A DNA stretch of 41,426 nt, from IMG/VR virus record IMGVR_UViG_2711768022_000004. One strand, given 5' to 3'. The stretch comes from a virus. Its lineage: Duplodnaviria > Heunggongvirae > Uroviricota > Caudoviricetes. The notes below the pieces were generated by a model, which was not told the DNA's origin, made no database searches, and worked only from the letters and a program-made list of their open reading frames with translations. Shown here piece after piece: positions 2,326 to 39,577 of the stretch. How positions within the stretch are numbered: position 1 is the first letter of the stretch; each line of letters begins with the position of its first letter. Position numbers and translations under genes: made by a program.

Positions 2326-3063
2326 TCATTCACTCTCTTTCAAACCAGTTTTAACTGTTTGTGGTTTTGGGTAAGGCTGGACTTTGAATAGCTTTGTGTT
2401 AAGGCGTTTTCTGGCTCTCTTGTCCAGAAACCGGATGTAACGAAACTGACGGAATTTATGAACACTGGCTCTGTCGATATTAGCCCGCAGATGTTCACCT
2501 CGCTGTCCTCCTCGTTTGATTGCATTCTTGCAAATCTCGTGATACCACTCGCCATCAAGTTCATAGAATGTTGTTTCATGACTGCCTACATAATCAAAAT
2601 TGCTTGCCTGGTACACGACACCAAGACAGCCACAACGCTCATCTGCAAACGACTGAACCCACTGCACCTGCGGATAAAGTTGTCTGATTAGTTTGAGCGC
2701 GTAACTGATTGCCCTTGATTCGGAGTTTCTCGGCATACAGTCATGCAGCCATAACCGGTTAAGCTCCATATATTCGCGGTTCTGCGTGCCAGTTACGACG
2801 CGTGCACCATTGTTTGGATTAAGGGCATAACCCCATTGCATTACGCCAACCAGCTCCCGTTCTGAAAATATGCCCAGATGAAGGTAGGAATTATTTACGA
2901 AACGATGGCTGTAATGTTTATTGACGACGACCAGCCGGGCCAGCCAGCAACTTATTGTCTCAACCCGTAACTCACGGGAGCCATAACCGACGATATTGTC
3001 GTTATAGTGAATAAGTTCAGGCGTGCTGATGATACGGGATGTAACTTGCTTTCTGTTCCCCAC
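2326..3063 (-). CDS. mom: Mom-like DNA modification protein (start uncertain; GTG at 3063 assumed, frame open to 3258)
   Basis: Immediately downstream of and overlapping a Com-like zinc-finger ORF at the prophage right end, as in Mu; about 245 aa if started at GTG 3061-3063. Confidence 0.6.
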
Positions 3064-3217
3064 GACAGGATTTCCTTGTGTATGTGGGGTGCTCTGTGGC
3101 GCTCTGAGATGTGATTTGATTGAGGGTTTTACAGCGCGGACATTTAACTTCCAGATAACTGAAGCTGGCTCGTGCCAGTAGCTTGTTACAATGTCGGCAC
3201 CGTATGTTTCGATACAT
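3017..3217 (-). CDS. com: Com-like zinc-finger translational activator of mom
   Basis: [35 protein letters not shown] has the C-x2-C...C-x2-C pattern and resembles Mu Com (IRCKNCNKLL...RCPRCK); AGGAGG Shine-Dalgarno upstream of ATG 3215-3217. Confidence 0.7.
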
Positions 3218-3260
3218 GGCCGCATAACCTCCTGCTTTGTTGTTGATATCTTTATCACTC

Positions 3261-4551: not shown

Positions 4552-6606
4552 TTACGCGTTATTCACTTCCACCACGATACTGTCAATCAGTACCGGGTAA
4601 GTCGCATTTTTAGTGATATCGGTCACGCGCAACTTGTCTGCCGTAAACGTGCCGACCGGAGACTGCGACAGCATGAATGGTGTCCCGTCCTTACCATCAA
4701 TGACCGGCGTCACCTCAATACTGTTGTTACCGGCAAAACGGAAGCCCAGCGTATGCCATTCGTTATTAAATGCGCCGAATGACCCCAGCTTCGTGTTCTG
4801 CGCCGTGTTTCCTTTGTGATACATCACGTTAAGGTCTGTGGCATCGCTCTGTACGTAGAACGATGCCAGCAGGTTATGACCGGCATTTCCTTCCAGAGTA
4901 ACCCCTTGCGGCAGGGCAGAAACCGGCCAGTACAGCGCCAGTGCGTACTGATTAGCCGTAAGCGCGCCATCGAGTTTAAAACGACAACTGACAAGACCAC
5001 CTTTACCCAGCAGGTCCGCACCATTACCAGCATCATGCTCAAGGTACCAGGGGGCTCTTCCTGTTTCCTTGGTCAGTTTCATTGCCTTACCCCCGCTGGC
5101 TCCGGCATCATCCACGATTTGAGCCTTGCCACCTCCGGCAGCCCAACCCTGTGGTGTCAACCGTCCTTCAGACTCAGATGCCCGGTAAGCAAATAGCGTA
5201 CTCATCGTCGTGGTGTCTGCGGGTGGCGTGGACGGTTTTGATGGTGTATCAGGTGACGGCTTCTCATCCGGTGGTGTCACGGTCTGCCCACGCATCAGTT
5301 CAGCCGTGCGCCCTGCATGGAGCATAATAGCTGAGGCCAGACGGTCTGAAATGACGCCCCTGCGTGCCCATGAGCTGAAATGGCTGTCACGCTGTGTCGA
5401 AACAAAACTGCCCTGGGTTCGGGATGCTGCACCGTAATACCCGACAGCCACAATATCCGGGTCTTCCGCCGGAGCATTCGTTGGCGTGCTCTGTCCATTC
5501 TCATCCGTCAGGAACGGTACAAAGAAAATTTTCTGTGCTTCCTTGCCTTTGTAGCCACCGTATACTGCCTCATATTTATCGGTGCCAGCGTTTTTCCAGT
5601 AATACGTGGTATCACCGCAAATCCACGGCACCGTGGTGGCATTTCCACTCACGCACTGCGCAGCAAGCGGAGCCAGGTCAGTTCTGAACTGCTGAACCAT
5701 GGCCGTGAATAAACTATTATGCTGCTGGCTTCCTGAGGCAAGGTCTGCCTCTCCCTGCATCCAGACCACAGCCAGAAGTTTGTTTTTCGGGTTTTTCGCC
5801 AGCGCGACTTTGGTGCGGCTTACCAGGTCCTGATACAGAGGTTTACCGGCCCCCCAGCGTGAAGAATCAGCGGAAGCACCGCTGGCCTCACTGAATGAGC
5901 CGTCGGCTCCAGTGGTGAATGCTGACCCGCCACGACAACAGGGCACCAGAAGTATCCCGGCATTCTGTGGGATATAGGGAAGCAGTTTTTTGGCAATATG
6001 CAACCCCTGACCGACAGTCCCGTACTGGCCTTTTGCCAGATCAGCTTTCGGGTGGTTTATCCCGCTCATATCCTGAACATCATGCAGGCAGTGGTCTGCC
6101 GGAATGATGTCGTTGTATGTACACGACGTACCGTTGGGCGTTACCGTACTGCGGCGTGCCAGTTGCTTAATGCGTGGGTCCGGGCGGTCAAACGAATCCG
6201 GTAACGGCAGCCCCTCGCCGTAGGCCATGCCATTTGACTGACCCGCGAGAATGACAACAAAGTAATATTCCGGCTCTGAACTGCTGCCATTCGTGCTACC
6301 GGAAGGCCCGGCGTTATCCGGTGCATTCCAGTCGGAGGGCGTGAGCGTTCCGGCCACGTCAGATGTGATTGGAATGATGCCAGTCACGCCTGAACTGGTG
6401 ATTTCTGCACTGGGATTACCGGATACCGGCATTACCCATAATGGCTCTTTCGTGCTGAAGCGGATCACGCAGTCTGCGAAGGTGATCCCCCCTTTATTAC
6501 CCGAAGGGCGGAAAGGGCTTTCAATAAATGCCACCGTGCCACCGGCAACCTTGACTGAAAACTCTCCGGGCATGGCGGAGAGCATTTTCCACTTGGAGTC
6601 TGACAT
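4552..6606 (-). CDS. SASA/SGNH-type carbohydrate esterase-like protein (sialate O-acetylesterase-like), prophage cargo
   Basis: 684 aa; VVILAGQSNGMAYGEG resembles the GQSNM motif of sialate O-acetylesterase-type domains; no obvious signal peptide; sits between invertase and com-mom. Confidence 0.55.
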   Translation of the reverse strand: MSDSKWKMLSAMPGEFSVKVAGGTVAFIESPFRPSGNKGGITFADCVIRFSTKEPLWVMPVSGNPSAEITSSGVTGIIPITSDVAGTLTPSDWNAPDNAGPSGSTNGSSSEPEYYFVVILAGQSNGMAYGEGLPLPDSFDRPDPRIKQLARRSTVTPNGTSCTYNDIIPADHCLHDVQDMSGINHPKADLAKGQYGTVGQGLHIAKKLLPYIPQNAGILLVPCCRGGSAFTTGADGSFSEASGASADSSRWGAGKPLYQDLVSRTKVALAKNPKNKLLAVVWMQGEADLASGSQQHNSLFTAMVQQFRTDLAPLAAQCVSGNATTVPWICGDTTYYWKNAGTDKYEAVYGGYKGKEAQKIFFVPFLTDENGQSTPTNAPAEDPDIVAVGYYGAASRTQGSFVSTQRDSHFSSWARRGVISDRLASAIMLHAGRTAELMRGQTVTPPDEKPSPDTPSKPSTPPADTTTMSTLFAYRASESEGRLTPQGWAAGGGKAQIVDDAGASGGKAMKLTKETGRAPWYLEHDAGNGADLLGKGGLVSCRFKLDGALTANQYALALYWPVSALPQGVTLEGNAGHNLLASFYVQSDATDLNVMYHKGNTAQNTKLGSFGAFNNEWHTLGFRFAGNNSIEVTPVIDGKDGTPFMLSQSPVGTFTADKLRVTDITKNATYPVLIDSIVVEVNNA

Positions 6607-6682: not shown

Positions 6683-6711
6683 AAAAAAGCGTCACGGTAC
6701 TTTTGGTGACG
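6683..6711 (-). terminator. rho-independent terminator overlapping the invertase stop codon
   Basis: On the minus strand, stem CGTCAC / GTGACG with 10-nt loop followed by CTTTTTT; invertase stop codon lies inside the stem. Confidence 0.5.
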
Positions 6712-7258
6712 GAGCTGGTGAGGCAGGAAAATAACGATAAAGGGTGGAAAGGCCAATATCAAATATCAGTGCGATTTGTTTACGGGACTCGCCATTAGCC
6801 AGCAAACGGGCGATTTGCTCCCGCTCTTTCTCTGTCAGTTTCTGAGGTCTGCCGCCATGACGCCCCTGAGCACGGGCAGCAGCAAGACCCGCGCGTGTAC
6901 GTTCAATAATGAGTTCCCGCTCCATTTCCGCCAGCGCGCCCATTATATGGAAAAAGAAACGTCCCATGGGAGTGGATGTATCAATATTGTCCGTAATGCT
7001 GCGGAAGTTAACGCCGCGTTGCCGGAGTTCTTCTGTTAAAAGGACAAGGTGCTGCATACTGCGTCCAAGGCGATCCAGTTTCCAGACCAGCAGGGTATCC
7101 CCTGGCCGGAGTCGCTTTAATGCGCGTTTAAGTCCGGGACGCTCCCTTGTCTTACCGCTTATTCTGTCTTCGAAAAACAGCTCACATCCTGCACATTCCA
7201 GCGCATTTCTTTGTAGCGCCGTATTCTGGTCATTTGTTGACACCCTGATATACCCAAT
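6692..7258 (-). CDS. gin: serine DNA invertase (Gin/Pin/Cin/Hin family), 5' end runs into the assembly gap
   Basis: Translation IGYIRVSTNDQNTALQRNAL...GDTLLVWKLDRLGRSMQHL...PMGRFFFHIMGALAEMERELIIERT is near-identical in pattern to Gin; frame continues upstream of the listed GTG start into the N-run. Confidence 0.85.
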   Translation of the reverse strand: MGYIRVSTNDQNTALQRNALECAGCELFFEDRISGKTRERPGLKRALKRLRPGDTLLVWKLDRLGRSMQHLVLLTEELRQRGVNFRSITDNIDTSTPMGRFFFHIMGALAEMERELIIERTRAGLAAARAQGRHGGRPQKLTEKEREQIARLLANGESRKQIALIFDIGLSTLYRYFPASPAPSPKVP

Positions 7259-12937: not shown

Positions 12938-14279
12938 TGATCACCTCCACGCTGCGGCCACCCGGAACAAAAACCGGATCGGGGATATTGTTTCTGCGGA
13001 CAAAATACTGCCAGCGACTGCTGTTGCCGGTGGCACGGTACAGCGTGACCAGTGCCGGTTCGGTGGTGCGAACCATGACCTGAAAAGCACCGGGAAGATG
13101 CACGCTCCGTGTGGTTAAATCTTCTGTCAGCGCAAGCCCTGCATCACGTAATGCAAGGGCAGTCCCGGTATAGCCCTGTGCGGACAGATCCAGCACCTGT
13201 TGTTCCATGGCATCGCTCAAATCCCGGTTGATACGCTGCACATCAGCAGAACTTTCCAGCCAGGCCAGTCCGCCCGAACGGTCAGTATCCTGAACGTGCG
13301 TCGTATTCTGCCGGATGACCTGATCCAGCAGTTTTCCGAGCGTCTGTGCCTGCGACACCAGGGTTGCACTCTGCATCACGCTCCGCAGCAGACGGATATT
13401 TTTCTGTGCCGCAGGCGTCAGGCCAATCAGGCGCTGTGGATCATCCTGTTCGCTGAGGGTGTAACGCAGGGAGGAAAGTGTGCGGTACAGCTGCGGCATG
13501 GCCTGCTCTGCCATGCTGTCACGGTTTGTGGTCAGGCTGCCGGACGGCGTTCCGGCTTTTCCGGTCAGAGACAGGGAAGGATCGCCGGGCAGCCCGGTCA
13601 GCACGGCAAACATTCCGGCCAGCGATTCAGCCATGCGACGGGGCGCATTAATCAGGGCGGCGGCATTGCCTTTCAGGGCAGTAAAACTGGCCGTAAAGGC
13701 ACTGATATCCTGCACAATCCCCATCCCCGAAACGGCATTCTCCAGTGCATCAATCTTATCGCTGATGGTGTCGGTCATGGCCTGTACATCATGCAGACCG
13801 TCTGAAATCACCGTCCAGCCGTCTGAAAGCGTGTTAAACAGCTGATTCATTGCTGAGCCGCTTTTCTGCTCCAGCGCAGCTGCCGTATCTTCTGCCACCG
13901 CAGGGGCGGTATCGTCACTGGCGGGGATCACGTTGATCGTGAACTCAACCGTTCCCTGCTCGCTGGCGTTATAACGGCTTTCAAAGCTGTTTATCAGCAC
14001 GTTTAACGTGCCGTAATCCGGGTGCATCAGTTCACCGGCACCGGGTGCACGCAGCGCATCACGCAGGCGGCTTCGCTGTGTCTGAAGATCGTCTCCGGTC
14101 ACCAGAACCGTGAATGTGAACTCCGGGAGTTTTGGCCCCAGATCATCCGCACCGCCGCTTTCACGCAGTGGGTATTCACGGCGCACAATGTTACGTCCGC
14201 CCCGTTCCCGCTGCTCCTGATAAACCAGGAACGGTACGCCACGAAAGGAGCCACGCCCCGGCGTGTCAGTAGAGGCCAT
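12921..14279 (-). CDS. Mu N-like tail protein (DNA circularisation protein family)
   Basis: 452 aa; immediately downstream of tape measure gene as in Mu. Confidence 0.55.
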   Translation of the reverse strand: MASTDTPGRGSFRGVPFLVYQEQRERGGRNIVRREYPLRESGGADDLGPKLPEFTFTVLVTGDDLQTQRSRLRDALRAPGAGELMHPDYGTLNVLINSFESRYNASEQGTVEFTINVIPASDDTAPAVAEDTAAALEQKSGSAMNQLFNTLSDGWTVISDGLHDVQAMTDTISDKIDALENAVSGMGIVQDISAFTASFTALKGNAAALINAPRRMAESLAGMFAVLTGLPGDPSLSLTGKAGTPSGSLTTNRDSMAEQAMPQLYRTLSSLRYTLSEQDDPQRLIGLTPAAQKNIRLLRSVMQSATLVSQAQTLGKLLDQVIRQNTTHVQDTDRSGGLAWLESSADVQRINRDLSDAMEQQVLDLSAQGYTGTALALRDAGLALTEDLTTRSVHLPGAFQVMVRTTEPALVTLYRATGNSSRWQYFVRRNNIPDPVFVPGGRSVEVISEQQD

Positions 14280-16323
14280 AGTTCCCTCCGTTCCAGACGT
14301 TCACATCCAGGCCATGCTGTGCGGTATCATCCACATCAATACTGCGCGCCCGCCAGCCTTCAGGGGCAACAAGCTCCACCCGTGCGGCGGTTTTCGCGGT
14401 GGCCTGTCCGCCGTTTTCGTCACTGCCGCCACGCAGTTTCTGCCAGGCCTGCGTCAGCCAGCCCCCCAGATAATCACCGAGATAGCTGCCCACCGTGGAA
14501 CCAATGGCAACCCCGACCGGACCGGCAGCCGCCCCCAGCGCGCCACCGGCGATACTTCCGGCAAGGGAACCCACGGCACCGGCTTTATCGGCTGCACTGG
14601 CGCTGCTGTCCAGCAGTACAGGAGCCGCCATGGCACCGGCCCACAGGGCACCACCACCCAGCCGACCGGCACCACGGAACAGCCCGGCAAAACGCCCCAG
14701 CCCCATGCGGTTTCCGGCCGCCGTTAGCAGACCACCGGCACGGCTCATCATACGACCGAAGAAGCCCTGTTTACCGGCACTCTCCGCCAGTTGCTCACCG
14801 GCAGTCACGACGGTCGTGACACCCCGTCCACGTCCGGGGCCGCGTTTTTTACGGCCGCGCACGGTTTTGCCGTCACCGCTGACCACCACATCCCCGCCAC
14901 CTGAGGCCAGGCCACCCGCAGGCCAATTGGTGACCAGCACGGGCTGAACGGCAGCCGGATTTACCCCGGTAAGGAAATTCAGGAACCGGCCAGCGCGTCC
15001 GGGCTGCGTTCCCGGTACAGTGGTCTGCGGTTTGCGGAAGGGCGACGTCAGCACGGAGGTCATCGCCATGCCATAGCGTAAGGGGGTTGCGCCGAGACGT
15101 AATGCCCCCGTCCCCGCAAACCTGAGCACCTTCAGCGCACGGGAGGCGAGATACATATACATCAGGTACTTTGCGGCGGTCTGCGCACCCTGACCAATGC
15201 GATCCAGCGCATCGCCATAACCGGCGTCGCGCAGTGCCTGAAGCGTTTCCCTGACTTTCTGAATGACCCGGTAAAAGCCGGTCGCAGCGTCTCTGGCATA
15301 CTCAAATCCCTGATTCAGGGCTGAGGCCGTCTGTGTGGCCAGCTTATCCTGTAAGCCGCTTTTCTGTGCCGCATCAGCATAATCCAGAAAGCCTTTCAGG
15401 CTCTTTTTCAGGCTGTCAAACGGTCCCTTTGCCATCACCTCGCGGGCAAATCCGTCCCAGACATCGCCCATCATGGACGTCATTCCCGTCCAGGAATTCA
15501 TGGCGTTTTTCTGGGCACCTTTTGCCTGTTCGGCCATCACCTGAAATAACAGGCGAATGCTGTCCGGTCCCAGTTTTCCTTTCTCGCCTTTCTCACGGAT
15601 GATCTTCTGGTTTACACCCAGCTTATCGGCCAGCAACTGGTAAACGTTAATCCCGTATCCGGTCAGAATATTGGCGTCCGCTGCCTGGATACTCTGGCGG
15701 GCAAACATCTGTTTGAGTTGCAGGGACGCACCCTGTGCATCTGACAGTGACCAGCCGTGATAGCCGCCCTGATCCTGAAGCATGGTAATAAAGCGACGGG
15801 CTTCCCTGTCACTCATACCGAACCCGCGACTGGAGGCGTATTCCTGCATAACCCCCGCCAGCCCCCAGGTGGTGTCTTTGGCGTTCTGTACCGCCCAGGC
15901 TTTCACTGCTTCCGTTTTTGCCGTATCGCCATGATTAATGGCGTTGAGACGCAGAATATAGTTCTCCATCTCTGCGGCCGGGCGGATAAAGGCTTTATTA
16001 AACCCGTAGACCGCAGCCCCTCCCGCCAGCATCCCGTAAAGGTTGCTTATCCGCCCGATGGTGCCGGTAATGCTGCCCTGAAGGCGGTCAAAATCTGACG
16101 TCACCGTGCGGATACTGCCACGAACACCGGCAAGCGTTCGCTGCATACGGGAGCCGACAAGTTCTGTCTCCTGACCGGCACGACGTGCTGCATTTCCAAG
16201 ACCACCCAGCCCCGTCCTGCCGGAACGGGAGAATGCCCCCAGCTCCTGTGACCACTGGCGGGATTTGGCAGAAATATTGCCGAGTAAATCGACAATCAGG
16301 GAGGCTTTCAGGTTTTTTGCCAT
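14266..16323 (-). CDS. tail tape measure protein
   Basis: 685 aa, Gly/Ala-rich C-terminal part; located after tail tube and chaperone genes. Confidence 0.75.
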   Translation of the reverse strand: MAKNLKASLIVDLLGNISAKSRQWSQELGAFSRSGRTGLGGLGNAARRAGQETELVGSRMQRTLAGVRGSIRTVTSDFDRLQGSITGTIGRISNLYGMLAGGAAVYGFNKAFIRPAAEMENYILRLNAINHGDTAKTEAVKAWAVQNAKDTTWGLAGVMQEYASSRGFGMSDREARRFITMLQDQGGYHGWSLSDAQGASLQLKQMFARQSIQAADANILTGYGINVYQLLADKLGVNQKIIREKGEKGKLGPDSIRLLFQVMAEQAKGAQKNAMNSWTGMTSMMGDVWDGFAREVMAKGPFDSLKKSLKGFLDYADAAQKSGLQDKLATQTASALNQGFEYARDAATGFYRVIQKVRETLQALRDAGYGDALDRIGQGAQTAAKYLMYMYLASRALKVLRFAGTGALRLGATPLRYGMAMTSVLTSPFRKPQTTVPGTQPGRAGRFLNFLTGVNPAAVQPVLVTNWPAGGLASGGGDVVVSGDGKTVRGRKKRGPGRGRGVTTVVTAGEQLAESAGKQGFFGRMMSRAGGLLTAAGNRMGLGRFAGLFRGAGRLGGGALWAGAMAAPVLLDSSASAADKAGAVGSLAGSIAGGALGAAAGPVGVAIGSTVGSYLGDYLGGWLTQAWQKLRGGSDENGGQATAKTAARVELVAPEGWRARSIDVDDTAQHGLDVNVWNGGNYGLY

Positions 16324-16326
16324 GGG

Positions 16327-16521
16327 TTACTGCTTCGTTCTGAGAATTTTTTCGGTCTGTCGGCAGTGCCGGTAAAGCTGCGATAAGGGGAGGTTAAGCG
16401 CCCACTCCGGGCCGCTTTTTGTCACCATCCCCAGCACAATTGCGGCTTCTTCAATCTGATCCCGGCACTGCATCTGGTCGCCCCCGTTCAGCGACCAGCT
16501 TTCCGGCCATCGCGGAATCAA
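16327..16521 (-). CDS. possible frameshift extension of the tail assembly chaperone
   Basis: 64-codon open frame in the +1 frame relative to the chaperone, overlapping its last 70 nt and ending 4 nt before the tape-measure start; listed start is a non-ATG codon. Confidence 0.35.
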   Translation of the reverse strand: MIPRWPESWSLNGGDQMQCRDQIEEAAIVLGMVTKSGPEWALNLPLSQLYRHCRQTEKILRTKQ

Positions 16522-16927
16522 GCAGGCTTACTGCCGCCATCAGTCGGGAGAGATCGCGCTCGCTGAGCTGTCCTATCTGACGCGGAGACAATGGCCCCTC
16601 AATCTGGCCGACAGCGGCAATCTGACGGCGCAGCAGCGCAATGCCGCGCAGTGCCGGTGAGGCCACAAGAACCGGACCGTTTCGGGTTTCCATAAGACGC
16701 TCGGCCTCGCTCTCCGCATCAATGCTGTCTTTTGCCGTCAGTTCGCGGAAGGTGACGCGGTATTCACGGGATTCCCCGAACGGCAGACCGTCGAGCAGAT
16801 CCACATAGCCGTTCGCCAGTTGTTCAGCCAGCCCGGCGGTGCGGGGATCGCCGTCTTCAAGTGCATCCCGGATAGCCTCCATCACGGCCTCGTCAGAAAC
16901 CGCCGTTTTTTTCTTACGTGTGCTCAT
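16451..16927 (-). CDS. tail assembly chaperone
   Basis: 158-aa acidic protein between tail tube and tape measure genes. Confidence 0.6.
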   Translation of the reverse strand: MSTRKKKTAVSDEAVMEAIRDALEDGDPRTAGLAEQLANGYVDLLDGLPFGESREYRVTFRELTAKDSIDAESEAERLMETRNGPVLVASPALRGIALLRRQIAAVGQIEGPLSPRQIGQLSERDLSRLMAAVSLLDSAMAGKLVAERGRPDAVPGSD

Positions 16928-16941
16928 TACATTTTTCCTGA

Positions 16942-17307
16942 TTACTGGACACGGGTACTGGTGGCGCTGGCGAACTTCGCGGAGATATCACCACCACCGT
17001 CAAGCGAGGCCGGTTCACTGCTCCAGGCCTTCGTCATCATGTGGACTTCACCGGTATCGGCCACGAACTCAATCGTGACCGCAGTCCAGGTGTTGATTTC
17101 ATCGGCAGCCGGTGAACCTTCTCCGCCCGCCGGGAATTTACAGTCCAGCGTCGCCTCACGGGGTTTCTCGCGATAGCCGTAAACTTTCGCGCCTTTCACC
17201 ACTTCACGCTCAAAGCCGGACGGGGAGAACGTGGCCCCCTCAAGGGTGTCGTACTCCTGCCCGTTCACACGGATGGTGGCCGTGCCCTGATACTGTTTTC
17301 CGCTCAT
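16942..17307 (-). CDS. tail tube protein
   Basis: 121 aa, directly downstream of sheath gene. Confidence 0.65.
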   Translation of the reverse strand: MSGKQYQGTATIRVNGQEYDTLEGATFSPSGFEREVVKGAKVYGYREKPREATLDCKFPAGGEGSPAADEINTWTAVTIEFVADTGEVHMMTKAWSSEPASLDGGGDISAKFASATSTRVQ

Positions 17308-17315
17308 GCCTTACC

Positions 17316-18818
17316 TCACAAAATGAAACGGATCTGCGCGGCCATGAAGCGGAACTGGTTAACCAGATCCGGTGTACACATCACATCCAGACGGTTACGG
17401 TCTTTTGTGTTGCGCTCCACGAGCAGATTCTTTTTAAAGGTGTCCAGATTTTCGACCAGTCCCAGATCCACCCATTCTTCCCCCAGCGAAATTAACTGAA
17501 GTTTCATGATCTCCGGTGTCACGATATTCTGACCGGCACGAACGGGCGTCCCGTCATCAGCCAGTTTATGGCGCGGAAAACGCTGCGTGATAAAGGTGCG
17601 CAGGGAATAACGCAGATATGACAGGGTGTAGATGGTTTCCACATCCAGATAGCTGGGATCGATTTCGCCGTATGCATTCTGACGGTACATCGTCACCTGA
17701 CGTTCAATCTGCACCACATCCGCGGCCGCGACGGTCACCGTGGACATGCCGGTATAAAGCAGGCTGTTTCGCTCTTCCCGCGTCAGACGATCCGGTGCTT
17801 CAGGTGCCATACGGGCAGGCAGCGCCAGTGTCTGTAATGGTCGGGCCGGATCCGTTGACAGGGAGGGCGCACAGACCGCACAAATGGAGGCAGCCCAGAC
17901 ATAATCCGGCTCTGGTGCTTTAGGAATAGAAGTGCAGGTAAACAGGAAGTCATTACGGGATTCACCAAAACTGGTTGCCGTACCGAAGGTGCCGGTATGC
18001 GCCATCCAGACCATACCGTCCGACATTTTTACCGGTCCCCAGCGTTTCAGCAGTTCATCCGCCAGAATTTTGAGATTTGCCGCATCCTTATAGGGCATGA
18101 CGATGTAGTTGTACTGACGATTCCCCATCCCTGAGACGCTACGGGTGATATCGGGGTTTGTTGCCTTCTGTGTTGGCGCGACGAGCTCCAGCGTAAGACC
18201 GGCCGGTGTAGTTTCACCGTCATAATAGTTCACCCGTAAATCATGAGCTGAGCATTCACCGATAAAGCGGGCGTTAACCCCCATGCTGCCTTTAAGTCCT
18301 TCAGCATTATCACCACTGACTTCAGCTGCGATAGCAGTGAATGGCGCATCAGTGTCAGCGTTAATGACCTTAGCCAGCTCTTCCACAAGCTCTTTACCTT
18401 TTTTCCCCTTACTGACGGGCAGGAGGTAACGGCGACCGCCGATGTAAACACTTAACACCCCGTCTGCCAATGCTGTTCCAATGATATTCATCACGCATGC
18501 CCTGGACTGACCTGTTCCAGCCCCCTGTGCAATGGCATATAACTCTGTGTCAGGGTTAATGGCGATAAATTCCTCTACCATCAGTGCAATCATGGAACCT
18601 CGCCCCCAGAGTTCTCTTGCTTGTGAAGCTCGGGTAATACGTACTGGTACATCAAGCTGACCGCGCCCCTGAATGGTAGTGTCTTTCATTGCAGCCTGAC
18701 CAAACAACAGTACCGCCTGACGCTGTGGTGGAGTGCCGGTCACGGCCATTGAATTATTGATTTCAATCTGTACCAGCGGAATGCGATTGTTATCGCCGAT
18801 ATAATCAAAGTTAATCAT
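17316..18818 (-). CDS. contractile tail sheath protein
   Basis: 500 aa; position ahead of tube gene. Confidence 0.75.
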   Translation of the reverse strand: MINFDYIGDNNRIPLVQIEINNSMAVTGTPPQRQAVLLFGQAAMKDTTIQGRGQLDVPVRITRASQARELWGRGSMIALMVEEFIAINPDTELYAIAQGAGTGQSRACVMNIIGTALADGVLSVYIGGRRYLLPVSKGKKGKELVEELAKVINADTDAPFTAIAAEVSGDNAEGLKGSMGVNARFIGECSAHDLRVNYYDGETTPAGLTLELVAPTQKATNPDITRSVSGMGNRQYNYIVMPYKDAANLKILADELLKRWGPVKMSDGMVWMAHTGTFGTATSFGESRNDFLFTCTSIPKAPEPDYVWAASICAVCAPSLSTDPARPLQTLALPARMAPEAPDRLTREERNSLLYTGMSTVTVAAADVVQIERQVTMYRQNAYGEIDPSYLDVETIYTLSYLRYSLRTFITQRFPRHKLADDGTPVRAGQNIVTPEIMKLQLISLGEEWVDLGLVENLDTFKKNLLVERNTKDRNRLDVMCTPDLVNQFRFMAAQIRFIL

Positions 18819-36250: not shown

Positions 36251-36478
36251 TTAGCTGACTTGTTTCGCACCAACAGAACGGCATATTCCGCTGTAAACTT
36301 CTGTCGCACCTTCGCGATCAAGTCCGGCAGATATCACCATTCGTGTGCGGTCATTAAATTCAAAAAGTAAATCGCCACATTCTTTATTTTCGGCCAGTGA
36401 AATCACCTTCACGTTATCGAAATTAACCAGGTAAAAGCGTCCGTAAATATCAGGAATATTAAATACCGCCATAATCAC
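36251..36478 (-). CDS. hypothetical early-region protein
   Basis: 75-aa ORF overlapping the B-like gene end by 4 nt. Confidence 0.4.
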   Translation of the reverse strand: MIMAVFNIPDIYGRFYLVNFDNVKVISLAENKECGDLLFEFNDRTRMVISAGLDREGATEVYSGICRSVGAKQVS

Positions 36479-37416
36479 ACCTGTGAGAGTAATTCAGGGT
36501 TGGTATAAACCTCTTTAAAGGCCGCATTAATATGTTTTTCTGTCAGCGCCGCGCCTTCACCGCTGGCGGTGAGCCACGCCTGGTTAAGCGTATGTGTCAG
36601 AACGCGTAACGCTCCCGGCTTTTCAGCGATAGCCTGCATGACGGCCAGCTCGGCCTCACCACTGATCCCCCACGCCATGGCAATGGCCAGCACATCCGCC
36701 TTTTTGGCCTTGCGAAGTTGTTTTGTACGGGCAAGACGGCTGAACAGGCGCGATAAATCATCAAAGGCGCGGCGTCCACCTTTAAACAATCCGCGCGGGT
36801 TACCAATAAGCACCATCCCGATCCCCGTGGCGTCCTGAATTGCCCGGAGTTGCTCCAGACCGTCAATACCAAGATGATCCGCCTCATCCACAATCACCAG
36901 TCCACGCGTTCCCATCAGGCGACGGCGGATGGCGCGGGATAATGCCCCTTTGTTCGCGCGGGTGTAATCAATCCCCAGCGCATCGGCCAGCTCCAGCAGA
37001 CACTCCGTGACGCTGGAGTGCGCGGGTGACAGGGTGATCATCCAGGTGTTTGGTTGCTCCTGGCAGTAATTACGGGCAGTGGCCGTTTTACCCACACCCG
37101 GTACGCCCACAATAACGTTAATACAGCCCATCAGGCGAACCGCCTGAAACAGTGCGCGCAGCTCCTGGACTGTCTGAGTTTCCACAAACTGCGGCGGTTC
37201 CGGCAGTGCGCTTTGTTTATTCCAGTTCTCATACCAGGAGCGCAGGGAAGCAGCCACAGCAGCGTTATCGCCTTTATATTTTCCCTTACGGAAAGCCGAT
37301 AATGTGCCGTCGGAAATTCCCGCCTCTCTGGCGATGGCATACTGCGTCAGTACGCCGCCATCAATAAGTTCATCAATGGTCTTGATTACATCGTTAATAT
37401 CGGTCATATTATTCAC
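36475..37416 (-). CDS. MuB-like AAA+ ATPase (transposition target-DNA activator)
   Basis: 313 aa; Walker A GVPGVGKT; N-terminal HTH-like region; directly downstream of transposase. Confidence 0.8.
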   Translation of the reverse strand: MNNMTDINDVIKTIDELIDGGVLTQYAIAREAGISDGTLSAFRKGKYKGDNAAVAASLRSWYENWNKQSALPEPPQFVETQTVQELRALFQAVRLMGCINVIVGVPGVGKTATARNYCQEQPNTWMITLSPAHSSVTECLLELADALGIDYTRANKGALSRAIRRRLMGTRGLVIVDEADHLGIDGLEQLRAIQDATGIGMVLIGNPRGLFKGGRRAFDDLSRLFSRLARTKQLRKAKKADVLAIAMAWGISGEAELAVMQAIAEKPGALRVLTHTLNQAWLTASGEGAALTEKHINAAFKEVYTNPELLSQV

Positions 37417-37489: not shown

Positions 37490-39577
37490 TCAGGCCAGCG
37501 GATCACTTTCTTTTAATTTCGCTTCGAGCAGTTGCAATCCCCGCTGGAAATTACGCTCGTATTCTTCATCAGGTTCATCGTCAGCGACCGGTTGCTGAAC
37601 GGTCACCGTATTACCCACAGGGCGGTATATGTTTTCCAGCCAGGGCTCCTGCGGCTTGTGCTCCAGCACGTTGACAACCTCATCCTCGGCATCACGGATT
37701 TTTTCCTCTGCGCGTTTACGCATGCCTTTAAGGCGCTGCTGCTGTTTGTAGTATTCCGCGCTGACAGGGAAGGCTTCGCGTTTATTGCCGTCCCATACCG
37801 CCTCGCAAATCACGCTGCCATCCGGGCGGCGCACGGTAATTCGTTCGGCATCATGAATGTCATAGCTGATAAGTACCTTACGGCCATGCTCGTCACGCAG
37901 CTCGGGCGCGTAGTAAATATTATTCAGCCAGCGTATTTCACAGCGTCTTACAGGGCGCTCCACCATCGGCCGGAACATATCCCGCAGTTCAACATCGGAC
38001 AGCCATTCAATTTCCGTGTCCTCTTCCGCCAGGCGTTTTTTTCTGAACTCCGCCGGGCTGTAATGTTTACCGTTCGGCTTCATGGGTAATTCATCGTGCG
38101 GCCGGTTGTTGTACCACTCAACACCGTCACGAATGGCATCAATCAGTTCAGACCAGGACGGTAAATCACGCATCGCTGACTGCTGCCGGGCGTTCAGCCG
38201 TTTGCCCTGTTGCAGGGCACTGAATGCCGAGCGTAAATCGCGGTTGGTTTTACGTAACGTCTCGCGATCTGCTCCTTTCCCGAAATAGGTGCGGTATTTA
38301 CGGGCTATGCGCATCGGTAATGTGCGGTTAAGCCGTTCGATAATGCCCCGTCCCTGCGGATTACCGGCAATCCCTGTCGGGTGATTAATCCCCAGTCGTG
38401 GCAGTATCCCCACAATCTCCTTATCCAGGACGTCGGCGGTTTCCCCGGAGCCATTATCCGAGTAATACAGAAACGGTTTGCCATGATGGCGAATACCGTG
38501 CTGTATGGCACCGGCTACGGCGAAAACATTTTCAGCCAGGTCAAGGCTCCAGCCCACCACAAAGCGCGTGCCACCGTCGATAACAAAGGTCACTTCCGGT
38601 GCGAATGGCCGCCCGTGAACCGGGTGCGCGCATTTCAGCTTCATGCCGTGACCGTCACCAATCCAGACATAATTCACCGGCATTCTGGACCAGTCGCGGC
38701 GCGTGAATCCCTCAAGCTGACGGTATTCACTGCCAGTTACCCGGCCTTTTTGTTTCACCACTTCCGGCAGTTTCTTCATTGCGCGGCGAATGGTGTCATA
38801 AGAGGGCATGATATCGAGCATATAAGGCTCATCAGCGTGCCGGTGCTGCCATTCAGCAACAAAATCCTCGTAAGCCTCGGTCATTGGTCGGCCGTTTGAC
38901 TGGCGATACTGCGCCAGAAATTCGGGCAGCCAGTTAATATCTTCGGCTTTTATTTCCTGGCGTTTACCCGGTGCCAGTAAAAGCAGGCGTTCAGCGGCGT
39001 TCTGTGCCTTGTTAAAGGCCGCAATCCAGCGTTTCAGCGTGATTTCACTCAACGCGCGGCTGTTTCCCTTTTTGGCGTTCGCCGTCTCAACCATTGCCAC
39101 AATGCGCTCGTCCAGTTGTGATCGTGCCAGGCTGTTAACGAGGAACCGGATAGCTTTAGCGCAGCTGAAACCGGGTTGTTGCGTGAATTTCAGCACCTCA
39201 CTGACGATCGCAATGCGTGCGTCTGCCACCTGGCGCTGGTTTTCAGTCAGGGCATTGAGGCGTTCGACCATCAGTTGTGGTGATCCGCGATATGCCTCCA
39301 CCGCATCAACCACGGCAGACGAGCGTCTGGCCTTTGTCACCACCGGAGCCGGTGATTCATCGGCTTTTTGCGTCATCAGTTGCAGGGCATAACGTTCGCG
39401 TAATGCCTGCTGTGTCACTTCAGGTAAACAGTCAATGCTGTATTCAAAACCTTTAGCGCCTTTCTTGCGGCGTCTGCTGGTTTCGCTGGTTGCATACTTC
39501 CTGATTGAATAGCGAACGCCTTGCTCCGTTCCCGGCATCCCCGGTAATCCAACCAGTTCTTTAACTGAAGCAAACAT
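37490..39577 (-). CDS. MuA-like DDE transposase
   Basis: 695 aa; between ner-like and B-like genes; N-terminus MFASVKELVGLPGMPGTEQGVRYSIRKYA parallels MuA N-terminal DNA-binding domain. Confidence 0.8.
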   Translation of the reverse strand: MFASVKELVGLPGMPGTEQGVRYSIRKYATSETSRRRKKGAKGFEYSIDCLPEVTQQALRERYALQLMTQKADESPAPVVTKARRSSAVVDAVEAYRGSPQLMVERLNALTENQRQVADARIAIVSEVLKFTQQPGFSCAKAIRFLVNSLARSQLDERIVAMVETANAKKGNSRALSEITLKRWIAAFNKAQNAAERLLLLAPGKRQEIKAEDINWLPEFLAQYRQSNGRPMTEAYEDFVAEWQHRHADEPYMLDIMPSYDTIRRAMKKLPEVVKQKGRVTGSEYRQLEGFTRRDWSRMPVNYVWIGDGHGMKLKCAHPVHGRPFAPEVTFVIDGGTRFVVGWSLDLAENVFAVAGAIQHGIRHHGKPFLYYSDNGSGETADVLDKEIVGILPRLGINHPTGIAGNPQGRGIIERLNRTLPMRIARKYRTYFGKGADRETLRKTNRDLRSAFSALQQGKRLNARQQSAMRDLPSWSELIDAIRDGVEWYNNRPHDELPMKPNGKHYSPAEFRKKRLAEEDTEIEWLSDVELRDMFRPMVERPVRRCEIRWLNNIYYAPELRDEHGRKVLISYDIHDAERITVRRPDGSVICEAVWDGNKREAFPVSAEYYKQQQRLKGMRKRAEEKIRDAEDEVVNVLEHKPQEPWLENIYRPVGNTVTVQQPVADDEPDEEYERNFQRGLQLLEAKLKESDPLA

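Follow-up and report, generated by a model that had tools for sequence, protein, structure and literature searches.

In phage lambda the tail assembly chaperone is made as two products with a common N-terminus, gpG and the frameshifted gpGT, which are kept at a fixed ratio and of which the longer carries an extension ending at the tape measure start (PMC5009743). The gene is flanked by that for the major tail or tube protein and by the tape measure gene, as it is in P2 (E/E+E'), and the lambda shift is of the -1 type at a site of the form X_XXY_YYZ. The lambda fusion is essential for tail assembly. The -2 shift of phage Mu is an exception among the tail-chaperone frameshifts (PMC2628397, PMC4378225). 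It was described as a tandem slippage on GG GGG CGA with tRNA-Arg (ICG) (PMC3458567), and Mu is listed as a natural -2 case whose product has one residue more than a +1 shift would give (PMC5009743, PMC3622925). The Mu GenBank record AF083977.1 has two CDS at this place, Mu_41 'tail assembly chaperone' and the two-piece Mu_56, the latter annotated as 'verified -2 translational frameshift in PMID 15469818; tail assembly chaperone frameshift product'. Outside the tailed phages, the same movement of two nucleotides back into the +1 register, again with one residue more than a +1 shift would yield, is found in arterivirus nsp2TF and in Trichomonas vaginalis virus 1, although the genes, hosts and slip sites (e.g. 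CC CUU UUU in TVV1) are unrelated to those considered here (PMC5009743, PMC3622925).

The DNA analysed, a stretch of 41,426 nucleotides referred to below as the window, is a complete Mu-like prophage of Escherichia coli, in which Pfam recognised the following genes:

37490-39577: MuA transposase
36475-37416: MuB
6692-7243: Gin-type invertase
2326-3258: Mom

Further Mu-like genes recognised in the same way were those for the portal, gpF, protease I and the major head protein gpT, together with those for the DNA-circularisation protein, gpP, gp46, baseplate J and gp48, with the gp43-48 set represented. All genes at the chaperone locus are on the minus strand, a point on which the initial annotation was silent:

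17316..18818, minus strand: tail sheath gene (Mu gpL homologue), 500 aa, Pfam Phage_sheath_1 and Phage_sheath_1C
16942..17307, minus strand: tail tube gene (Mu gpM homologue), directly preceding that of the chaperone, 121 aa, Pfam Tail_tube PF10618, E=3.4e-30
16451..16927, minus strand: tail assembly chaperone ORF (Mu gp41 homologue), the zero frame, 158 aa, 17.0 kDa, Pfam Gp41_Mu PF23746
16327..16521, minus strand: overlapping ORF in the +1 register relative to the chaperone, 64 aa from a TTG at 16521, no Pfam match
16327..16527, minus strand: whole stop-free stretch in the +1 register, 66 codons (16527 to 16330) and a stop
16478..16485, minus strand: putative slippery site GG GGG CGA, with the zero-frame codons C GG/GGG/CGA (Arg-Gly-Arg), 10 codons before the zero-frame stop
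16327..16479, minus strand: predicted extension after a -2 shift (+1 register), 50 codons and TAA, DQMQCRDQIEEAAIVLGMVTKSGPEWALNLPLSQLYRHCRQTEKILRTKQ*
14266..16323, minus strand: tape measure gene (Mu gp42 homologue), 685 aa, Pfam TMP_3 PF20155, E=2e-17

The sheath, tube, chaperone and tape measure genes follow each other on the minus strand in the same order as in Mu, as judged from the ORF list and the Pfam matches set against the Mu GenBank record, and in both elements the extension frame comes between the chaperone and the tape measure gene. The initial annotation had placed a chaperone ORF at 16451-16927 between tube and tape measure genes, overlapped at its 3' end by a 64-codon frame in the +1 register that finished 4 nt before the tape measure gene. 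The chaperone coordinates proved exact and are supported by Pfam; the overlapping frame was recovered as the ORF at 16327..16521, extending to 66 codons from stop to stop, and three-frame translation put its TAA at 16329-16327 and the tape measure ATG at 16323, leaving a spacer of 3 nt in agreement with that figure. The 127 nt between the chaperone stop and the tape measure gene are covered by the extension frame. The stops it had reported in the -1 frame were located by the same translation at 16520, 16490 and 16424, and, as it had also stated, no in-frame heptamer of the canonical X_XXY_YYZ type was present anywhere in the chaperone ORF. Membership in the -1 class of lambda G/GT was rejected on these two grounds, despite the shared position between the tube and tape measure genes. 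Nor is the window chaperone significantly similar in sequence to lambda G.

The affiliation with Mu was clear at the protein level. The chaperone matched the Pfam family Gp41_Mu (PF23746) over the whole profile (positions 1-107 of 107) with E=3.3e-32 and 111 bits against a cut-off of 27, and the PHROGs family phrog_508 'tail assembly chaperone' with E=5e-43, while in tblastn it was 49.6% identical to Mu gp41 over residues 33-155 (E=2e-27). The broader Pfam family Phage_TAC_7, which includes the P2 gpE, Mu gp41 and gp14 chaperones, gave 23.6 bits against a cut-off of 25 (E=5.5e-05), lying beneath the stronger Gp41_Mu match. Searches of PDB sequences and of NCBIfam with the fusion protein returned no match. 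At the homologous place of both genomes the same 12 nucleotides, GAA CGG GGG CGA (GAACGGGGGCGA), stand in the same phase, followed by the zero-frame stop after 8 codons in Mu and 10 in the window. Read side by side, the +1-register peptides are homologous (…GGEWLRCRNDIEKAATAIGVILKSGPEWALSLPLSRFFRHCQQAKTLSQYHR in Mu against …GGDQMQCRDQIEEAAIVLGMVTKSGPEWALNLPLSQLYRHCRQTEKILRTKQ in the window), and the window extension follows the C-terminus of Mu FS-gp41 with the pattern …KSGPEWAL.LPLS..RHC.Q; both extensions have 50 aa and end just before the tape measure gene. The two loci differ in the longer chaperone N-terminus of the window (158 vs 144 aa), in the sequence of the extension, which has diverged but is clearly alignable, in the spacer to the tape measure ATG (3 nt vs 14 nt in Mu) and in an in-frame ATG four codons past the slip site of the window, which is missing in Mu.

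The locus is thus very probably the gp41/FS-gp41 chaperone gene pair of a Mu-like prophage, predicted from its sequence to be expressed via a programmed ribosomal -2 frameshift of the Mu type. The initial annotation had suggested a frameshifted chaperone fusion at the position equivalent to lambda G/GT, entered through the +1 register, and this suggestion is backed by the homology to Mu gp41, by the slip site and by the conservation of the +1 frame. It made no connection with Mu, for which the configuration is already described. Because shifts of -2 and +1 lead into the same register, the open +1 frame is explained without a canonical -1 heptamer.

According to the Mu model, most ribosomes would translate from 16927 to 16451 and release the 158-aa chaperone. 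A minority would slip two nucleotides back with the Gly codon GGG (16483-16481) in the P site and the Arg codon CGA (16480-16478) in the A site. On GG GGG CGA the Gly tRNA would re-pair perfectly with GGG, and the inosine-containing Arg tRNA would re-pair with GGC, better than it could in the -1 frame. The slipped ribosomes would then continue in the +1 register with GAC CAG ATG… until they reach the TAA at 16329-16327. The predicted fusion, complement(join(16327..16479,16478..16927)), would have 200 aa and 22.0 kDa, with the tandem -2 junction …LVAERGR/DQMQCR… and a Lys-C junction peptide LVAERGRDQMQCRDQIEEAAIVLGMVTK, while a -2 slip of the P-site tRNA only would give …ERGG/DQMQ…. The same two variants are met in the database entries of the Mu fusion, whose junction is …ERGR/EWL in GenBank UIW09302.1 and …ERGG/EWL in UniProt P0DJY4; this discrepancy reflects the tandem and the P-site-only models of the -2 slip, respectively. 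By analogy with lambda gpG/gpGT (PMC5009743), both chaperone forms would coat the tape measure protein, the small C-terminal domain of the rare extended form would recruit tail tube subunits, and neither form would be expected in the finished virion. It is the Mu literature and the lambda analogy that point to the occurrence of the shift in this prophage, to its -2 nature and efficiency and to the role of the extension; in particular, we infer production of the fusion by homology with Mu, the only case where it is verified according to the GenBank note and the reviews.

The conservation of the junction was followed in relatives that included the annotated phages Mu, D108, SfMu, Pasteurella Pmp9, Alteromonadaceae B23, Klebsiella Kp4866-3, Shewanella MuM16-2, Vibrio 1.028.O and martha 12B12, four E. 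coli prophages with 83–97% nucleotide identity, one Citrobacter braakii locus and 80 IMG/VR contigs. The Citrobacter locus was the single one obtained by scanning genome contigs with one protein, the alignment-based scan of viral contigs being far more productive. At the codon level, 74 distinct gp41 homologues could be compared, coming from phages and prophages of Escherichia, Citrobacter, Pasteurella, Klebsiella, Shewanella, Vibrio and Alteromonadaceae and from viral contigs without host assignment. The slip-site codons were GGG in 74/74 and CGA in 74/74 of them. Twenty columns of this alignment are at least 90% conserved for an amino acid with degenerate codons (Gly, Arg, Leu, Ser, Ala or Pro), and the 18 other than the slip site use 3–6 synonymous codons each. 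The structural genes of the prophage themselves use GGG for 21% and CGA for 5.6% of their Gly and Arg codons, respectively. The fixation of GGG CGA amid synonymous variation at the other conserved columns indicates that the constraint acts at the nucleotide, not at the amino acid, level, and the same combination is a clean signature for finding Mu-type sites elsewhere.

The nucleotide comparisons gave the same picture. Among the distinct junctions 49 of 50 had GGG CGA in phase, and when 23 diverse relatives were aligned over 111 nucleotide columns, only eight columns were invariant, seven of them belonging to the GGGGCGA block. In about 42 of 50 distinct contexts a G stood two positions upstream of GGG, and the base directly 5' of GGGGCGA was mostly G, with A in the Citrobacter-type relatives and in L044 and C in L077. 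The slip sites with four G's, AAG, CAG or TCG followed by GGG CGA, belong to the Citrobacter braakii locus (L003:2931-2938), to L037-L040, L044 and L077; after a -2 slip their P-site codon would be AGG or CGG, with a mismatch at the first position, and the extension frame of these relatives is still open and conserved. The one exception among the 50 junctions, L070:1546 (IMGVR_UViG_2758568005_000002), lacks one base of the G run and so has the two frames directly fused; with a second frame break downstream, it looks like an indel or an assembly error. The same shortening by one G in the Logan assembly proteins P0003 and P0008 results in a single 187-aa ORF of the Mu type (…ERGEWL…); these could be either homopolymer indels of sequencing or assembly, or genuine mutants making only the fusion.

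The number of copies of the motif GGGGGCGA in the window (2 observed vs 2.25 expected) is uninformative alone; the argument rests on phase and conservation. Its second copy, in the sheath gene (18607-18600, minus strand), has the same phase (TGG GGG CGA, Trp-Gly-Arg), but in the Citrobacter relative the codons for this Gly-Arg are GGT CGT. The motif is thus not conserved in the sheath gene and probably a chance occurrence. A shift of -2 or +1 there would meet a stop after 4 codons (…GGEVP*); at most, this copy would be a minor source of an abortive product.

Taken alone, the open +1 frame is weak evidence, being no more than chance could give. Stops occur in the +1 frames of the long ORFs of the window at 0.038 per codon, so that 51 stop-free codons have P≈0.14, and stop-free +1 runs of at least 66 codons make up 9% of the runs in this G+C-rich window. 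An accidental opening in G+C-rich DNA, with the 127-nt stretch being a non-coding spacer, would fit these figures, but it was ruled out by the conservation data, and its probability is practically nil. The comparison of the junction across related prophages, which the initial annotation had proposed as a check, found the overlapping frame conserved: in every intact relative the +1 frame ran on for 30–47 codons after the zero frame had closed, and it ended between 15 nt before and 16 nt inside the tape measure start (nine loci with an annotated tape measure gene), while the -1 frame closed earlier than the +1 frame in nearly all relatives, usually within a few codons. Over the 40 non-overlapping extension codons, the comparison of the window with five relatives (9–14 nucleotide differences each) gave dN/dS of 0.06–0.09 in the +1 frame against about 0.9–4 in the other two frames of the same nucleotides wherever the ratio was defined (dS > 0). 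Two closer relatives add little, one with 4 differences (dN/dS 0.10) and one with a single difference and no nonsynonymous change. The differences were concentrated at the third positions of the +1-frame codons (e.g. 0/2/8 and 1/2/11 for the three positions). The extension peptide is homologous to that of Mu across about 50% divergence and matched the 54-aa profile phrog_12783, of unknown function, with E=1.4e-37. The invariant slip motif, the frame kept open in the intact relatives and the low dN/dS in the +1 frame thus place the feature far above chance. Such a coding constraint is equally compatible with any mode of translation in the +1 frame, including that of an independent small gene started from its own ATG at 16473, with the G run serving as a Shine-Dalgarno sequence and no fusion made. 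The window does have this ATG (16473-16471) in the +1 frame, 7 nt downstream of the GGGGG run, and the extension is annotated in D108 (NC_013594.1) as gp41.5, a separate 48-aa hypothetical protein, apart from having its own PHROGs family. Yet the ATG is not conserved: its place is taken by Leu in the Mu-type relatives, by Ala in the close E. coli ones and by Lys in the Vibrio and Shewanella ones, Val also being found, and no other conserved start codon was present in the +1-frame peptides of the relatives inspected. Nor does a Shine-Dalgarno role need the synonymous invariance of CGA, and the fusion of Mu is annotated as experimentally verified. An independent gene is accordingly very unlikely, and both D108 gp41.5 and phrog_12783 are most likely mis-annotations of the C-terminal domain of FS-gp41.

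Two further explanations accept the fusion and differ in how the register is changed. A +1 shift shares its register with a -2 shift and is inseparable from it by sequence alone; here the peptidyl-tRNA-Gly would slip from GGG to GGC while the A site awaits the slow and rare CGA, resulting in a fusion of 199 aa with the junction …AERG/DQMQ…. The low usage and invariance of CGA are what would be expected of a 'hungry codon' +1 site, and the four-G relatives, in which P-site re-pairing after a -2 slip is weakened, would leave a +1 slip unaffected. Against this, the identical site of Mu is stated to be verified as -2 both in the literature and in the GenBank record, and the G two positions upstream of GGG, prevalent among the contexts compared, is a base needed only for a backward shift. 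We therefore consider a +1 shift in this prophage improbable. Still less credible is slippage of the RNA polymerase on the run of five G's, deleting one nucleotide or inserting two in a fraction of the transcripts. A homopolymeric G run does lie exactly at the junction, the runs shortened by one G in L070, P0003 and P0008 show some proneness to indels, and a 2-G insertion would yield the UniProt junction …ERGG/…; however, the adjacent CGA is not required for such slippage and is nevertheless synonymously invariant, the arrangement is kept in relatives with only four G's, and the Mu case is ascribed in the literature to -2 frameshifting by the ribosome. Moreover, five G's are short for productive transcriptional slippage, the known cases having about 7 or more A or T.

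For the preferred Mu-type -2 frameshift, a search was made for stimulatory elements. RNAalifold found 0 conserved pairs between -10 and +100 around the site in 23 diverse relatives, and in 12 enterobacterial relatives a structure of -4.6 kcal/mol in which covariation was negligible, being limited to 1 of 11 pairs, while the downstream fold of the window itself, as a single sequence, was unremarkable (z=-0.51). With no downstream structure supported, the efficiency of the shift is not arguable from structure. As a candidate stimulator the sequence shows only the invariant rare CGA codon, which may slow decoding in the A site through its I·A wobble pairing. The arterivirus -2 case depends on a trans-acting protein stimulator, and nothing comparable was indicated in the window. 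It is conceivable, though doubtful, that the site works without any RNA structure, depending purely on the invariant G GGG CGA and stimulated solely by the inosine Arg tRNA at the rare CGA; in that case the four-G lineages (e.g. Citrobacter), and possibly the prophage of the window, would slip by +1 or in the P site only instead of by a tandem -2; if so, one conserved motif would support two slip geometries.

The feature is real and very probably functional, an ordinary case of the Mu -2 tail-chaperone frameshift already described. With the site identical to that of Mu and the mechanism described for Mu in 2004 (Xu, Hendrix & Duda), there is little new in it and the scientific yield is small; the practical value lies in annotation. 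In the five E. coli loci inspected in full, RefSeq/PGAP called only the 158-aa 'phage tail assembly protein' and left the extension unannotated, and the 25 matches listed in the E. coli search all carried this same label. The 127-nt 'gap' in front of the tape measure gene is coding, and the correct feature would be the two-part join given above. Over 751 nt the junction region was 100% identical to E. coli JE86-ST05. A search of 5,426 complete E. coli genomes found it in 73, the identity being at least 82.9%.

Several minor observations concern the rest of the element and its surroundings. Between the Gin invertase and Mom lies a minus-strand ORF of 684 aa (4552-6606) with a SASA domain (sialate O-acetylesterase-like, E=1.5e-13) and a match to DUF6645 (E=7e-68), which may be either a cargo gene or a tail-associated carbohydrate esterase; Mu is not known to have a gene at this place. 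Beyond Mom, whose side is presumably the right end of the prophage, a truncated lambdoid ORF 'Prophage tail fibre N-terminal' (423-1595) and a fragment of an IS66 transposase (1649-2107) were found, and this content suggests an insertion of the Mu-like element within, or next to, another prophage. A parallel is given by the Stx-phage records LC727881 and LC727895, in which a 'region of the inserted Bacteriophage Mu-like phage' with 90% identity is annotated. In the near-identical prophage of JE86-ST05 the tape measure gene (L012:3178-5236, 2,059 nt) is given by RefSeq as a 'frameshifted' pseudogene, while the ORF of the window (14266-16323) is intact with 685 codons, the first difference between the two sequences being at window position 14926.
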